Shown here: in pieces, positions 1,240 through 17,895 of the stretch | How the letters are laid out: each line of letters begins with the position of its first letter | Numbering within the stretch: the stretch's first letter is position 1 | Source: an uncultured Bdellovibrionales bacterium | GTDB taxonomy: Bacteria; Bdellovibrionota_C; UBA2361; CAZKXU01 | Reading direction: 5' to 3' | Assembly (NCBI GenBank): GCA_964556665.1 | Contig: CAZKXU010000070.1 | Coordinates: 1-18,907 of the forward strand | DNA length: 18,907 nucleotides | Position numbers and translations under genes: made by a program | Notes under the pieces: generated by a model | What the model was told of the DNA's origin: nothing | Seen by the model: the letters and a program-made list of their open reading frames with translations, nothing else | The model's database searches: none

Positions 1240-3138
1240 TTATAACTCCACCTGCATTCCAATTTCAATTACCTGCTGAGGTGGAATATGAAAGAAGGTT
1301 GTAGCTCTTTCGGCATTGCGGGAGAGGAAGGCAAAAAGACGCTCCCGCCATATCGCCATACCCTGAAGTTCTGTTGCAATTAGGGTCTCTCTGCCTAAAA
1401 AATAGGTTGTCTCTCCAAAGCGGAGATTTATCCCCTGGTTAGTCAAAGACTTTAAGGCTTCCGGAATATTTGGAGTGTCTGAGAATCCGTAATGCACGAC
1501 CACACGGTAAAATCCCTTTCCTAGATCTTGCATTTCAACCCTCTCTTCACGTGGTACGCGAGGAATCTCCTCTGTTACAACCATTAACATAATCACCTGC
1601 TCGTGGAGTACTTTATTATGTTTAACATTATGCAAGAGTGCCGGTGGGGTGTTGTCAATGCTGCGATTCATGAATATTGCAGTACCTGGAACACGACTAA
1701 CACCTGTGTTGGCCATTTCAAGTACAAAATGTTCAAAAGGAATGCTCTTATGACGCAACCGCTCACCAAGTATCTCACGCCCGCGACACCAGGTAGTCAT
1801 CAGGGTGAATACTGCTAGTCCCATTGCTAGTGGAAACCATCCTCCATGGCCAATCTTAATAATGTTACTACCTAAATATATGGCATCAATTATGAAGAAA
1901 GGTAGTAAGATGAGCAGCGCCTTATATCTAGTCCAACGCCACCTAACCCTAGCGACAAAATAAAGTAAGATAAGAGTTATGATCATGGTGCAGGAAACAG
2001 CAAAGCCATACGCAGAAGCCAGGCTACTTGAGGAGCGGAATTCTAGCACAAGCCAAAGAGTTGCAATTAAGAGTGCATAATTAAGCTGCGGTATATAGAT
2101 CTGTCCAATAGCGTCTGAGGATGTGTGCACTATCTGTAAGCGCGGTAGGTATCCGAGCTGTACTGCCTGTCTAGTAAGAGAAAATGCTCCAGAGATTACA
2201 GCTTGTGAAGCAACTGCTGTTGCGGCTGTAGCCAGAGCCACCATAGGAATGAGCGCCCAATCAGGGACTAATAGGTAAAACGGATTGTATACGGCATTCT
2301 GATCCCGTAACAGCAAGGCACCTTGGCCGAAGTAGTTAAGGGTTAGGCATGGCAGAGCAACCATGAACCAGGCATGTCTGATGGGGATGCGGCCGAAGTG
2401 TCCCATATCAGCGTACATCGCCTCACCTCCGGTTACGACAAGAAAAACACAGCCGATTATCCACATCGATGACCAGCCATGGTTAATCAAAAACTGAATT
2501 GCGTAAGATGGGTTGATTGCCCAGAGCACGTCAGGAGAATGAGAGATGCTGTTAAGCCCAAGAAATCCGATCGATAAAAACCAGACTAAGATAACTGGTC
2601 CAAAAATAAAACCGATTTTTGTTGTACCGTGACGCTGAACTAGGAATAGGCAACTTAAAATTATAAGTGTCAGAGGAATAATATAGTCATCAAATGCGGT
2701 GGTAGCTACTTTAAGACCTTCAACAGCACTTAATACGGAGATAGCTGAGGTAAGCATGCTGTCCCCATACAGAAGTGAGGTTCCGAAAAGTCCCAATAAT
2801 AGGAGGGTGCTGCGCTTTACAACCGGATTACGGGTACGTGGATGAAGCAAGGCCGTTAGCGCCATTACGCCACCCTCTCCACGATTGTCAGCTTTAAGAA
2901 CAATTCCCTGGTATTCTATACAGATCGTCATTATCAGGGCCCAAAAAATAAGGCTCAATATTCCAAAAATATTCTCAGCACTGGGTGGAATGGCGTGTGA
3001 GCCGAAAAAACACTCTCTAATGGCATACAATGGACTAGTGCCGATATCGCCGAAAACGACACCGAGAGCAGTGAGTGTTAGTACAGCGTGAAACTTCTGT
3101 GTGCTATTGCCAGCGTGATGCTTGTTGTCGGTGCTCAT
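1240..3138 (-). CDS. kup: Potassium uptake transporter Kup (KUP/HAK/KT family)
   Basis: 632-aa polytopic membrane protein. The N-terminal ALGVVFGDIGTSPLYAIRE motif is characteristic of the Kup family. Length and hydrophobic profile are typical. Confidence 0.93.
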   Translation of the reverse strand: MSTDNKHHAGNSTQKFHAVLTLTALGVVFGDIGTSPLYAIRECFFGSHAIPPSAENIFGILSLIFWALIMTICIEYQGIVLKADNRGEGGVMALTALLHPRTRNPVVKRSTLLLLGLFGTSLLYGDSMLTSAISVLSAVEGLKVATTAFDDYIIPLTLIILSCLFLVQRHGTTKIGFIFGPVILVWFLSIGFLGLNSISHSPDVLWAINPSYAIQFLINHGWSSMWIIGCVFLVVTGGEAMYADMGHFGRIPIRHAWFMVALPCLTLNYFGQGALLLRDQNAVYNPFYLLVPDWALIPMVALATAATAVASQAVISGAFSLTRQAVQLGYLPRLQIVHTSSDAIGQIYIPQLNYALLIATLWLVLEFRSSSSLASAYGFAVSCTMIITLILLYFVARVRWRWTRYKALLILLPFFIIDAIYLGSNIIKIGHGGWFPLAMGLAVFTLMTTWCRGREILGERLRHKSIPFEHFVLEMANTGVSRVPGTAIFMNRSIDNTPPALLHNVKHNKVLHEQVIMLMVVTEEIPRVPREERVEMQDLGKGFYRVVVHYGFSDTPNIPEALKSLTNQGINLRFGETTYFLGRETLIATELQGMAIWRERLFAFLSRNAERATTFFHIPPQQVIEIGMQVEL

Positions 3139-3198
3139 ATTTTGCTAAGCAGTATGCCAGAAGCTTTGACCTCTGAATATACTGAGAAAACTCTATAT

Positions 3199-3312
3199 AG
3201 ACCTTATGACGCACCCCTCCAAGAAGTAAACTAATAATCGTAGGTTGCTTGTTGTTCCAATGAATAACAAGCCGAGCTACATTTACTAATGGAGGAATGC
3301 GTCATAAGGTCT
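3199..3312 (-). repeat. 114-bp nested inverted-repeat element / long RNA hairpin (22-bp arms AGACCTTATGACGCACCCCTCC ... GGAGGAATGCGTCATAAGGTCT) between small secreted gene stop and kup start
   Basis: Arms 3199-3220 and 3291-3312 are reverse complements at 20 of 22 positions. The two non-matching positions are C:A on the plus strand but G:U wobbles on the minus-strand transcript, giving a continuous 22-bp RNA stem in the transcribed orientation. An inner 7-bp hairpin GCTTGTT...AACAAGC lies at 3246-3271. The right arm overlaps the stop codon of the 3311 gene by 2 nt. Confidence 0.7.
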
Positions 3313-3703
3313 AGAGCACAGTAAGTTCCACTGTTCCTGATCCTGTATCAACTGTTAGTCCAGATAGACCAGGCTCAAGTGTGCAGGTGTGCGGAGCAGG
3401 GCAGATTAGGTTGCCATTGATCATAACAAAAAAATCTTTCCCTAAGAAAAAGATAGTAACTACGAAGCTTTCGCTGATTAATCCAGCATATGCGGGGCTT
3501 GCGTTAGTTACAGTCATATCGATGCTAGTTACACCACTTAAGCCTCCTCCTCCTGATCCAAGGCTGCGTCCACCGCTGCTTTGTGCAAAGACATTTGCTT
3601 GGGAGGATAAATAGTATGCGGTGAAAAAAAGCATTGAAAAGAGAGCCACTAATCTCTTTGTGATGATGCGAGGTCTTGAAGCTCTTGGAAGAAATGGAAG
3701 CAT
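3311..3703 (-). CDS. Hypothetical small secreted protein, Gly/Ser-rich N-terminal region after the signal peptide
   Basis: 130-aa ORF. It has a signal-peptide-like N-terminus (...LVALFSMLFFTAYYLSSQANVFA|QSSGG), followed by the low-complexity stretch GGRSLGSGGGGLSG and a C-terminal segment rich in predicted beta strands. I recognise no homology. It is divergent from the 3814 gene across an AT-rich spacer. Confidence 0.45.
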   Translation of the reverse strand: MLPFLPRASRPRIITKRLVALFSMLFFTAYYLSSQANVFAQSSGGRSLGSGGGGLSGVTSIDMTVTNASPAYAGLISESFVVTIFFLGKDFFVMINGNLICPAPHTCTLEPGLSGLTVDTGSGTVELTVL

Positions 3704-3813
3704 ACTGTGTTGAAGGGTAGCAGATAGAATAATTCAAGTCAAAGTTAAATTAAACAAATATATTGATTTAACTATATGTTGCTCTATATACTTGTCAGAG
3801 GAGGTGTTTGTTC
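3704..3813. promoter_or_regulatory. AT-rich divergent promoter region between the small secreted gene (-) and the 419-aa secreted gene (+); candidate sigma70-like TTGATT(3763-3768)-16nt-TATATA(3785-3790) and strong SD GAGGAGG(3798-3804)
   Basis: The intergenic spacer is AT-rich. Hexamers resembling -35/-10 lie with a 16-nt spacer. A perfect Shine-Dalgarno sits 9 nt upstream of the ATG at 3814. The promoter assignment is tentative because the predicted TSS would fall almost on the SD. Confidence 0.25.
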
Positions 3814-5073
3814 ATGGTCAAAGCTGATCACGCTAGAGGAGTAGCTGTTGCTGCAATTGCGGCTCTGTTTTCAGCTCCACATGCCGTGGCACTCCCACCA
3901 ATGCCATTGAAGATGCCTAGGCTAGAAGAGTCATTGGCAGTCGAGGGCGACAGCCAGGCAGAAAAACTCTCTATCTTTTCAGCTCTCCCGTTGGGTGTTC
4001 GGCAAGCCATAATGGCACGAGTGGAGGAGCGCCTCGATCAGCTAGATGATCCATTTTTTATAGCTATGACGAGATTTACAGGATCAGCTCAAGTAGGTGA
4101 TTTGCCGCTATATGCTCCACAGGTGGTGGTGCAGTATCTAGAAGGTGGCAATAAGAGAGATTTTGTCGGTACCTCCGCAAATGGCGAATCAGATCAAACT
4201 ACAGGCGCCCTTCCGTTTGCACTTGATGTTAAATATGTAGATCGCGGTCTTTATAGAACGGAACTTACTAGTCAGGACCTCTATCCCAATCTTCAATTTA
4301 GAGCTGCACTAAACGGATATCATTCTAATACAGCGTTGTGGCTTGCCACCTTGCTCAAAGAGCTAGATAACGGCCAAGACTTTTTTGCCGGAGATCAGCT
4401 AAAAAGGGAGAATGGATTTTATCTAGACTTTAGTAAGCTTCTCGATACTCGTCTTCCAGGAAAGAGTTGTACTATAGATATAGGGCTTCGTACCGCTGAT
4501 TATACTGATACGACCTGGCTAGATCTGGCATTTGAACCGTTCAAGGCAATAGTTGAGAAGCATTTTGGCGAGGATGGTAAGTACCCCACTGGAAAAATCT
4601 GGTCGGGACAACAGGATAAGCGTTTTATATTACTACAGGTATTTCTTTCATATAGAATTTTTAGGCAGGAACGAGAGGCCTCTGCTTTAGCTTGGGTATT
4701 AAACCCTGATGATTCTTTTCCCGCATCTTATAAAAGTTTTGAAAAAAGATTTGGACCTGGTACGCCTAAGGAGAAATTAAGCTGGAGAGAGGAGGCTATT
4801 GTTTGGTTAGGCGATATGCCTGATTTCTTTCGTCAGATAGATGAGACGAAGACTGCGCTTATTAGAGCGCCTGCAACTCCACCGAGTGGGGGAATAGTAG
4901 CTGGCTCACAACCAGATTTTTATCGAGCGGCTGCTGCCTCTCTTGCGCAACGAGGAGTTAAGGACCATCCAGACACATTGGATACGCTAGCTGTGTTGAA
5001 TGAACGATGGCGAATGCGTAATACTTTAGTAGCATTGATCGCCACTGAGGAGCTTGCTAATGCAACCAGATAA
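3814..5073 (+). CDS. Hypothetical secreted protein (419 aa), function unknown; translationally coupled to downstream sulfatase
   Basis: The ORF runs from a TTG at 3808. The ATG at 3814 is preferred because GAGGAGG ends 9 nt upstream. The N-terminus MVKADHARGVAVAAIAALFSAPHAVA|LPP looks like a Sec signal peptide. I recognise no catalytic motifs; it lacks the RGGS and C-terminal Cys motifs of the formylglycine-generating enzyme and has no radical-SAM CxxxCxxC. The stop at 5071-5073 lies 10 nt before the sulfatase ATG, within the sulfatase SD. Confidence 0.6.
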   Translation: MVKADHARGVAVAAIAALFSAPHAVALPPMPLKMPRLEESLAVEGDSQAEKLSIFSALPLGVRQAIMARVEERLDQLDDPFFIAMTRFTGSAQVGDLPLYAPQVVVQYLEGGNKRDFVGTSANGESDQTTGALPFALDVKYVDRGLYRTELTSQDLYPNLQFRAALNGYHSNTALWLATLLKELDNGQDFFAGDQLKRENGFYLDFSKLLDTRLPGKSCTIDIGLRTADYTDTTWLDLAFEPFKAIVEKHFGEDGKYPTGKIWSGQQDKRFILLQVFLSYRIFRQEREASALAWVLNPDDSFPASYKSFEKRFGPGTPKEKLSWREEAIVWLGDMPDFFRQIDETKTALIRAPATPPSGGIVAGSQPDFYRAAAASLAQRGVKDHPDTLDTLAVLNERWRMRNTLVALIATEELANATR

Positions 5074-10719: not shown

Positions 10720-10750
10720 ATGGTATAGTGAGTTCTTAAAATATTAGTCC

Positions 10751-10825
10751 CTGGGAACGCGGGCTTCCAGTCCGCAAACGAAATTGCAGGCACTAAGTAG
10801 CGAGCTAGAAGCTCGCGGTCCCAGT
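10751..10825. repeat. Copy 2 of the ~75-nt palindromic repeat element
   Basis: It has the same length (75 nt) and the same termini CTGGGAaCGCGG...CGCGGTCCCAG, with one A:G mismatch in the outer stem. Inner hairpins are GCGGGCt-tcc-aGtCCGC and GCGAGC-tagaa-GCTCGC. It lies in the 134-bp spacer between the SPFH gene and queA. Confidence 0.85.
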
Positions 10826-10853: not shown

Positions 10854-11912
10854 ATGAGCAAATACGATCTGTTTACCTACAATTTGCCGAACGATCGTAT
10901 CGCCGATCGCCCGATCTATCCGCCGGAAGCTGCTAAACTCCTCGTTATTAACCGTTCGGCTAAGCAGCTCATAGATCTACAATTTACAGAGATTACTCAA
11001 TTTCTTAAGCCGAGCGATCTGATTGTGTTCAATGACACCAAGGTCTTACCGTCTCGTCTTTTCGGCGTTGGGGACCGCGGCGCCAAATTAGAGCTTTTAC
11101 TTCTACGCGCTAAGCCTGAGATTGAAAACGGGTTTGTATGCTTGGGGAGGCCGTTAAAGAAATTTCGGCCGAATACGGCTATTGTATTTGGACCGGAGCT
11201 AGAGGCCCAGATACTTGCACGTATATCTGAGAGTGAGGTGCTAGTTAAGTTTAATGTACGATCAGATGGGCTTTCATTAAATACACTGCTGAACAGGTAT
11301 GGCAGTATGCCGATTCCACCTTATATTAGAGGCGGCATAGCTGATCAGAGAGACTTTACTGATTATCAGAGTGTCTTTGCGAGAGAGGAGGGATCGATTG
11401 CAGCTCCGACAGCAAGCCTGCATTTCTCTAATGCCTTGATTGATAGTATTAGAGTGACTGGGTGTGAGATTGGGTATCTGACACTACATCTTAGCACCGC
11501 CAGTTTTTTTAGTTTGTATCAAGGTAACTCTCTAGAGGAGTCGGAGATTCGTCCGCCGGGGGAAGAATACGGAAGAGTCAGTACTATGTTGGCTCAGAAA
11601 ATTGCAAATAAGAAGAGTTCAGGTGGTAAAGTACTGGCGGTAGGGACCTCTGTTGTGCGAGCACTTGAGTCGTTTGCTGCAAACACCAGTTATAGACTTG
11701 ATGAATTTAATCCAACAACTTTATTTATTACACCAGGGTATCAATTTAAGATAGTTGATAAACTTGTTACAAACTTTCACCAACCAGGCACCACTCATCT
11801 TAGTCTGGTAGAGGCTATTTTGGGGCGAGAGTTGTTAGAAAATGCTTATAGACACGCCTTGCATAATTCATACCGATTTCTTAGTTATGGTGACGGGATG
11901 GCTGTGCTATAA
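10854..11912 (+). CDS. queA: S-adenosylmethionine:tRNA ribosyltransferase-isomerase (queuosine biosynthesis)
   Basis: 352 aa. The N-terminus LFTYNLPNDRIADRPIYPPEAAKLL and the overall length match QueA. It sits immediately upstream of tgt, as in the conserved queA-tgt-yajC-secDF operon. Confidence 0.92.
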   Translation: MSKYDLFTYNLPNDRIADRPIYPPEAAKLLVINRSAKQLIDLQFTEITQFLKPSDLIVFNDTKVLPSRLFGVGDRGAKLELLLLRAKPEIENGFVCLGRPLKKFRPNTAIVFGPELEAQILARISESEVLVKFNVRSDGLSLNTLLNRYGSMPIPPYIRGGIADQRDFTDYQSVFAREEGSIAAPTASLHFSNALIDSIRVTGCEIGYLTLHLSTASFFSLYQGNSLEESEIRPPGEEYGRVSTMLAQKIANKKSSGGKVLAVGTSVVRALESFAANTSYRLDEFNPTTLFITPGYQFKIVDKLVTNFHQPGTTHLSLVEAILGRELLENAYRHALHNSYRFLSYGDGMAVL

Positions 11913-13440
<1,528 letters not shown>

Positions 13441-17317: not shown

Positions 17318-17380
17318 ATCTTAGAGAGCGTAAAATTATTACCAGTTATTCAGTCCTTGCACTGAAAACTAAGTTTCCTA

Positions 17381-17433
17381 CTGGGACCGCGGGCTTCCAG
17401 CCCGCTTGATCGAGGAATTTGCCAAGACATAGT
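17381..17433. repeat. Copy 3 (truncated) of the palindromic repeat element: 5' arm + hairpin A + central segment only
   Basis: CTGGGACCGCGGGCTTCCAGCCCGC (17381-17405) matches the 5' half of copies 1 and 2. The following GAATTTGCCA matches the central GAATTGGTTGCCA / GAAATTGCAGGCA. The 3' terminal arm is absent. It lies 64 bp downstream of the ATPase gene stop. Confidence 0.7.
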
Positions 17434-17436
17434 TGA

Positions 17437-17478
17437 CCCCAATAAATTGTCCCCAATAAATTGTCCCCAATAAATTGT
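17437..17478. repeat. Tandem direct repeat, 3 x 14 bp (CCCCAATAAATTGT)
   Basis: Three perfect head-to-tail copies lie at 17437-17450, 17451-17464 and 17465-17478, immediately after the truncated palindromic element and before a long AT-rich spacer. Confidence 0.9.
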
Positions 17479-17607
17479 CTCACTGACATTGCGAACCTCC
17501 TACTAAAAATTGTAGATTTGAAATCAAATAAGTTGGTGACTAAAAACTCAATTTATATAGAATCTTAGCGCCAAGCATTAAGCCAGTTAGCGTGCTATTA
17601 TTGCCTT

Positions 17608-17632
17608 AAAATATGCTTTCAAAGCATATTTT
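17608..17632. repeat. 25-bp perfect palindrome AAAATATGCTTT-C-AAAGCATATTTT (imperfectly extendable to ~35 bp)
   Basis: The 12-bp arms are exact reverse complements around a central C. The stem is AT-rich and followed by TCTTAAG. It could be an operator-type protein-binding site or a weak terminator hairpin. Confidence 0.8.
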
Positions 17633-17758
17633 TCTTAAGAACTCTTAGATATTGGCAACAAGATTTGACCTTATTCCCTGAAATTATTAATATTTTCTAC
17701 TGTTTTGAAATCAGCTTAACTAGAATGACCATTAGCAATGTCTCTGTGAGAATTTTTT

Positions 17759-17782
17759 TGGGAATTTTATGGGGAATTTTAT
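17759..17782. repeat. Tandem direct repeat, 2 x 12 bp (TGGGAATTTTAT GGGGAATTTTAT)
   Basis: Two adjacent near-identical 12-mers (11/12) lie about 115 bp upstream of the 228-aa orphan gene start. Confidence 0.8.
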
Positions 17783-17895
17783 GAGGCTCGCAAGGGTCCC
17801 GTTTAATTTTGATGCTTATTAGAAACTGTTGACTATAAATAATTAGTTATGGGAGATCGTTTGAAATAATCGCTTCCCCTAAGCTTTGTCCCTCT

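Follow-up and report, generated by a model that had tools for sequence, protein, structure and literature searches.

An orphan palindrome of possible transposon origin upstream of kup in an uncultured Bdellovibrionales bacterium

The DNA analysed here (the window) is the whole 18,907-bp contig CAZKXU010000070.1 from assembly GCA_964556665.1 of an uncultured Bdellovibrionales bacterium. The contig is chromosomal and carries kup and a gene for a periplasmic binding protein on the minus strand, and genes for a sulfatase, a pyruvate carboxylase and a Band_7 protein together with queA, tgt, yajC, secD and secF on the plus strand. The kup gene (1240–3138, minus strand) encodes a KUP-family K+ transporter of 632 aa (PF02705, 3.7e-181; PF22776) and is separated by 675 bp from a divergent gene of 419 aa with its ATG at 3814. 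Within this space, upstream of kup, lies a rod-like imperfect palindrome of 116 bp (3198–3313). An earlier note on the same DNA had read this palindrome as an element selected at the RNA level and had listed as candidate roles an RNase III processing site, a stabiliser of mRNA 3' ends, a structured kup leader of the riboswitch kind and a single-copy MITE (miniature inverted-repeat transposable element). By our analysis, the chances are about evenly balanced that the palindrome is an orphan MITE-like insertion whose effects as double-stranded RNA would be incidental.

The palindrome is built from two 24-nt arms, at 3198–3221 (TAGACCTTATGACGCACCCCTCCA) and 3290–3313 (TGGAGGAATGCGTCATAAGGTCTA), which are complementary at 22 of 24 positions (92%) and lie 68 nt apart. 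The 22-nt arms described earlier (3199–3220 and 3291–3312, matching at 20 of 22 positions) are correct and nested within these. The right arm differs from the left by two adjacent transitions (3296–3297 versus 3214–3215). With up to two mismatches and loops of up to 150 nt allowed, this was the longest inverted repeat in the contig, while 12 first-order Markov simulations of the contig gave longest repeats of only 14–18 nt; the repeat is far beyond chance and highly non-random. Between the arms lies an AT-rich core (3222–3289), with 34% GC compared to 43% for the contig, that has no spanning open reading frame (ORF), resembled nothing searched and retains only residual palindromy, with GTAAA, GTAG and GCTTGTT common to both halves. 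This contrast between arms and core amounts to a terminal-repeat-plus-core layout. The core also contains an inner hairpin (3247–3272), in which the GCTTGTT/AACAAGC stem reported earlier as 7 bp extends to 11-bp arms (3247–3257 and 3262–3272) around a 4-nt loop, with a sole mismatch at G3254:T3265.

The pairing continues outside the arms. In an outer extension (3190–3197), CTCTA (3191–3195) pairs with TAGAG (3312–3316), at the outer end of the right arm, across a 4-nt TATA bulge (3196–3199). In the minus-strand RNA, AGAGU (3194–3190) is matched with GCUCU (3317–3313) over a 4-nt AUAU bulge. The extended helix spans 3190–3317 and brings the element to 128 bp. A UUUUCU run (3185–3190, minus strand) provides a weak terminator-like tail. 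It had been placed 8 nt downstream of the hairpin, which is right when counted from the 22-bp arm, but the base of the extended helix adjoins the run, and the residual UUUCU (3189–3185) follows it directly.

Both strands of the element fold strongly. The 182-nt stretch whose reverse complement had been proposed for folding gave a strong hairpin as minus-strand RNA (-77.3 kcal/mol, z = -8.75, relative to shuffled sequence) and also as plus-strand RNA (-70.7 kcal/mol, z = -9.65). The 135-nt core stretch reached a minimum free energy (MFE) of -63.8 kcal/mol (z = -10.3), and z = -10.4 when folded as single-stranded DNA. In each of these four folds, none of 200 shuffles was equally good. For the 128-nt element, the minus strand formed 45 Watson-Crick and 4 G:U pairs (MFE -63.3 kcal/mol) and the plus strand 46 Watson-Crick and 2 G:U pairs (MFE -60.3 kcal/mol), a difference of 3 kcal/mol out of ~62. 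The predicted shape was an unbranched rod, in which the minus-strand RNA forms a helix of 23 uninterrupted pairs, including two G:U pairs, or 28 bp with the extension.

These values bear directly on the argument for RNA-level selection, which rested on the hairpin being fully paired only in the minus-strand orientation. For the outer stem the observation stands, since its two mismatches, C3214:A3297 and C3215:A3296, clash as C:A on the plus strand but turn into G:U pairs on the minus strand. It fails for the inner hairpin, where the polarity is opposite: G3254:T3265 makes a G:U pair on the plus strand and a C:A clash on the minus strand. Whenever a transition occurs in a palindrome, a G:U pair results on one strand and a C:A clash on the other, and the probability that two adjacent transitions both favour the transcribed strand is roughly 0.25–0.5. 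The near-equal folding of both strands and the mixed polarity of the mismatches therefore indicate symmetry at the DNA level rather than strand-specific selection on the RNA, and the RNA-strand signal is not statistically meaningful. The case shows that, with just two mismatches to go by, G:U pairs on the transcribed strand make a weak criterion of selection at the RNA level.

The ends of the element suggest how such a DNA palindrome could have arisen. A TA dinucleotide lies directly outside GACC...GGTC on both sides, at 3198–3199 and at 3312–3313. The two are direct repeats and thus a candidate 2-bp target-site duplication, yet they are also self-complementary, pair with each other and extend the palindrome, of which they may be the last two pairs. 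On the duplication reading, the left terminal repeat proper is 3200–3221, and the 22-bp terminal inverted repeat reads GACCTTATGACGCAYYCCTCCA. Excising the element (GACC...GGTC) together with one TA leaves CTCTATATAGAG, a perfect 12-nt palindrome centred on TA. Transposons of the IS630/Tc1-mariner superfamily prefer palindromic TA-rich targets. IS630/Tc1-mariner elements integrate at a TA, which becomes duplicated; ISY100, of the IS630 family, has 24-bp imperfect terminal repeats and duplicates its target TA (PMC2170065). MITEs are generically described as shorter than 500 bp, bounded by terminal repeats of 4–30 bp, AT-rich, intergenic and transcribed into a stable stem-loop (PMC10969869). The palindrome agrees with this description in its size, in its six reading frames, all of which are broken by stop codons or lack starts, in its 24-nt arms, in its AT-rich core and in its intergenic position and very stable fold.

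We propose an origin at the DNA level, with the element starting out as a non-autonomous miniature transposon: a MITE, or else an insertion sequence of which this is the in-situ remnant. It would have inserted into the TA-rich palindromic spacer CTCTATATAGAG in the region upstream of kup, and the TA on each side would be the product of an IS630/Tc1-mariner-type insertion. Among the candidate roles first listed, a single-copy MITE best fits the anatomy, although neither a second copy nor a partner transposase was found. Compared to IS630/Tc1-mariner-derived (Stowaway-like) MITEs, with ISY100 as the reference, the palindrome is alike in its ~22–24-bp terminal repeats and in the TA at both junctions (PMC2170065), and also in its TA-rich palindromic target, small size, non-coding sequence and whole-element hairpin (PMC2170065, PMC10969869). 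It differs in that no partner transposase, second copy or sequence similarity was found in the collections searched, and in that the TA may be part of the palindrome instead of a duplication.

Several observations weigh against a transposon origin. The self-complementary TA/TA pair may belong to the stem rather than to a duplication, and the 5-bp outer extension could mean that the palindrome simply reaches further and contains a bulge left by (TA)2 slippage. To our knowledge, no transposase is associated with these terminal repeats (GACCTTATGACGCA...). MITEs are defined by being multi-copy or by having a partner insertion sequence. The 18.9-kb contig itself contains no second copy; an exact 20-mer of the terminal repeat had no match in the GTDB species representatives and none in the JGI metagenomes, where a gapped pattern of both arms was likewise without match; and blastn against plasmids and phages returned nothing. 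A 15-mer searched against IMG/VR gave 30 single-arm matches, consistent with chance, none of which had both arms, and the one inspected in detail (L093) lay inside an ORF without a partner arm. The translated element (38 aa) had two matches among 1.84 billion protein representatives, both of them translated satellite repeats. Three relatives with a syntenic tgt region (L112–L114) had no copy of the element, nor of the other hairpin family described below. A full-text literature search for the repeat sequence found no paper. The source genome is missing from the DNA collections searched, as the window's own 20-mer had no match in the GTDB representatives; the negative result therefore bears on the element's distribution, which is not wide, and not on whether its host has a single copy.

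The element was also compared with what lies upstream of other kup genes. At 79 other kup loci (GTDB representatives, drawn from among the matches listed, at least 599 stretches, and all with at most 56% identity to the Kup of the window), no comparable repeat was found: within 300 nt upstream of the gene the longest inverted repeat was 18 nt, and typically 11–13 nt, compared to 24 nt here. The only close Kup (P0002, 77% identity) was not among these loci. Since nothing similar precedes the 79 genes, the element is lineage-specific. Searches of Rfam gave no match in the whole window at gathering thresholds. At E ≤ 10, over 3000–3500 and over 3100–3850 (the latter on both strands), they gave no ydaO, c-di-AMP or other riboswitch, and only sub-threshold noise from the plant miRNA precursors MIR394 and MIR5048 and a 25-nt pseudoknot (UPD-PK). 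Two outcomes that the earlier note had itself named as telling against its proposal, the absence of an Rfam match and the absence of hairpin conservation in kup leaders, were thus both observed, the second among 79 distant loci.

Other classes of mobile or repeated element were considered and rejected. The ends (TAGACC...GGTCTA) lack the core sites of an integron attC (GTTRRRY/RYYYAAC), and no integrase gene is nearby. A Tn3-type element, with 38-bp repeats, does not fit because there is no 5-bp duplication, and no longer flanking duplication (3–5 bp) of any kind was present at the ends of the palindrome. Retrons and REP/BIME elements were rejected on sequence grounds, and no recombinase, integrase or reverse transcriptase gene neighbours the element.

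The window contains a second palindromic repeat family that is GC-rich and unrelated to the kup palindrome, with a core of CCCTGGGACCGCGGGC...GCCCGC...GCGGGC...CGCGGTCCCAG. It is present in 2.5 copies, two of ~87 nt that share 77% identity (32–118, copy A, and 10739–10825, copy B) and one half copy (17374–17405), and all three are intergenic, 20–60 nt past stop codons. Both full copies gave rod-like folds, at -55.6 kcal/mol (z = -6.7) for copy A and -36 kcal/mol (z = -4.1) for copy B, and the differences between them are apparently pairing-preserving; the family had no Rfam match. The order Band_7-queA-tgt(-yajC-secDF) is common to the three relatives L112–L114, which were found through Tgt. 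Copy B fills a 134-nt gap between the Band_7 gene and queA; this gap does not exist in L112 and L114 and is ~30 nt in L113. Because the gap is filled here and absent or short in the relatives, this comparison of sequences shows that the lineage does acquire palindromic (hairpin) insertions. The case also flags an uncultured lineage whose intergenic regions would hold at least two unrelated hairpin-forming insertions.

What the kup palindrome does once in place depends on whether it is transcribed. On the minus strand, the sequence that best matches a sigma-70 promoter (CTGACA-16-TATAGT, 10/12) lies at 3798–3771, and the scan accepted none in the interval from the hairpin to kup; promoter-like sites occurred at chance density over the contig and were not enriched. 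From its position, the 3798–3771 site could drive a transcript through the upstream ORF, the hairpin and kup. As the only plausible promoter on the minus strand lies upstream, the kup mRNA probably includes the element. As RNA, the element would fold into a generic double-stranded structure with an uninterrupted helix of 23 bp, or 28 bp with the extension, which would probably act as an RNase III substrate, as a barrier to 3'-exonucleases that protects the upstream RNA, and/or as a weak terminator, reducing the transcription that continues into kup. An RNase III site and a 3'-end stabiliser, both proposed earlier, are in our analysis plausible consequences of transcribing the element. Mobility, TA duplication, transcription, and processing or termination are all steps that we infer.

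Known families of transcribed palindromes illustrate such consequences. Correia elements (CREE/NEMIS) of Neisseria resemble the kup palindrome in being intergenic, ~100–150 bp long and bounded by ~26-bp terminal repeats and TA flanks; they are co-transcribed with their neighbours, their RNA hairpin is bound and cleaved or protected by RNase III, and they can alter adjacent expression (PMC2649163, PMC10969869). They differ in numbering hundreds of copies and occurring in Neisseria only, compared to one copy here in an Oligoflexia/'Deltaproteobacteria'-like metagenome-assembled genome (MAG), and in that neither a promoter nor an integration host factor (IHF) site has been demonstrated in the kup palindrome. 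We take the Correia and kup sequences to be unrelated. ERIC and RPE elements share the ~120–130-bp length, the palindromy over the whole length and the intergenic position next to stop codons; they are transcribed and can affect mRNA stability, and transcribed ERIC elements influence exposure to RNase E (PMC10969869). Unlike the kup palindrome, which has neither consensus nor family, they are multi-copy families with a conserved consensus in Enterobacteriaceae or Rickettsia. If transcribed, the element would be a natural case of a palindromic insertion that separates a K+ transporter gene from a promoter, and it could modulate kup much as Correia elements do in Neisseria; beyond this, and beyond annotation, its significance is slight.

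The first alternative to a MITE-like insertion is a locally evolved 3'-end hairpin. Working as an intrinsic terminator of long and non-canonical form, or as a barrier to 3'-exonucleases, it would end or stabilise the RNA of the 130-aa ORF upstream (3311–3703, minus strand) and attenuate read-through into kup. The position of the hairpin speaks for this: as the earlier note had seen, the arm begins within the stop codon of that ORF, whose TAG (3313–3311) takes in the right-hand TA and falls in the outermost arm bases, and UUUUCU comes directly after the base of the extended helix. Hairpins after genes are moreover a theme of the contig, as the three copies of the second family also lie past stop codons, and canonical terminators are not enriched in it (15 found versus 15.3 expected). 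Like intrinsic terminators and REP-type 3' stabilisers, the palindrome is a stable hairpin that comes right after a stop codon and has a short U-run behind it. However, it is ~10x larger than these, and at 128 nt, with 16 + 6 perfect base pairs, the rod far exceeds evolved terminators. The helix base is weak (5 bp after the 4-nt bulge) with just four consecutive U, and the terminator scan, which allows loops of 3–8 nt only, did not call the element, whose loop is a 68-nt substructure. The verdict that this is no textbook terminator was right, even if the U-run is nearer the helix base than first supposed. An evolved 3' end also leaves the equal foldability of the plus strand and the TA flanks unexplained, and this reading would also suit a MITE in which termination is incidental.

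This alternative further depends on an ORF that may not be a gene. The ORF had been called a secreted-protein gene, and its N-terminus does resemble a signal peptide; no homolog and no Pfam or NCBIfam match were found, and its codon usage scored 0.114, at the low end of the in-frame range and equal to that of the antisense frame (0.096). None of its four start variants was present in a collection of 15 billion proteins, for which the gene caller had chosen the antisense 77-aa ORF at 3381–3614 (plus strand; P0242) instead. Taken together, we consider a locally evolved 3'-end hairpin unlikely. The two ORFs, 3311–3703 and 3381–3614, form a pair of mutually antisense orphans with indistinguishable codon-usage scores. 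Restoration of a longer ORF by loss of the element was tried as well: excision with one TA kept would extend the ORF to 161 aa with an out-of-frame overlap with kup, and removal of 3198–3313 would give 150 aa with an ATGA overlap, neither of which was compelling.

A second alternative holds that the palindrome is an RNA element selected to regulate kup, the idea that the earlier note put first. Processing there by RNase III, or by another double-strand-specific enzyme, would uncouple kup from the upstream transcript and set the stability of its mRNA. The helix is long enough, as its 23 uninterrupted pairs in minus-strand RNA compare with the near-continuous duplex of at least ~20 bp that makes an RNase III substrate, with transcription judged from promoter position. 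The two mismatches of the outer stem, or three when G3317:U3190 is included, are G:U on the transcribed strand, and the scan gave kup no promoter of its own between hairpin and gene. Yet the G:U asymmetry falls short of significance and runs the other way in the inner hairpin, and the element showed no conservation, with nothing similar at any of the 79 kup loci. The near-perfect Watson-Crick arms, in turn, suggest that this is a DNA palindrome of recent origin and not an RNA helix maintained over a long time. Selection for a processing site is in our view quite improbable.

A non-transposon site acting as DNA, whether a palindrome that forms a cruciform or binds protein, a site of recombination or the product of template switching (a quasi-palindrome), would account for the symmetry at the DNA level and for the single copy. 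The arms, at 68 nt apart, do not have the geometry of an operator, and both attC-like core sites and an adjacent recombinase or integrase gene are missing, which makes this explanation very unlikely. We would rate as highly unlikely a lineage-specific intercistronic module of double-stranded RNA that sets the level of kup mRNA by being cleaved or unfolded, whether by RNase III or in response to ionic strength or K+; if true, it would be a structurally new, non-riboswitch regulation of K+ uptake in an uncultured Oligoflexia-like bacterium.

The idea of a ligand- or ion-sensing leader of kup drew on the c-di-AMP riboswitches that precede K+ transporter genes in some Firmicutes (PMC6488665), but with an unbranched rod that has neither the junction nor the conserved loops of riboswitch aptamers, no riboswitch match on either strand of 3100–3850, only plant miRNA precursors, which are generic hairpins, as Rfam resemblances, and nothing comparable at the other kup genes examined, it is largely refuted as far as testable and extremely improbable.

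The spacer between the palindrome and kup holds a minor structure of its own. The arm on the kup side ends 59 nt before the ATG at 3138, in agreement with the ~60 nt given earlier, and a second small hairpin of 13–14 bp (3148–3183, minus strand) occupies this spacer and ends ~10 nt before the kup AUG; it folds only marginally better than shuffled sequence (z = -2.2). No obvious Shine-Dalgarno sequence precedes kup or several other genes, while the divergent 419-aa gene at 3814 has GGAGG.

Two further observations concern the organism and its contig. The closest named relatives of its Tgt are from Deltaproteobacteria and Oligoflexia MAGs (64–66% identity), and a 1,480-bp contig with ~2.8x coverage from an independent metagenome assembly (L111; ENA ERZ3430527, NODE_61983) is 100% identical to 11880–13359 of the window, in the tgt region, which means that reads of the same organism are public in ENA ERZ3430527. 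Elsewhere in the window, an AT-rich non-coding stretch of 578 bp (17318–17895, ~37% GC) holds the half copy of the second repeat family (17374–17405), together with three tandem 14-nt units of TTGTCCCCAATAAA (17433–17479), a cluster of promoter-like matches and a 32-nt inverted repeat (17464–17495 and 17732–17763) whose arms are 78% complementary.

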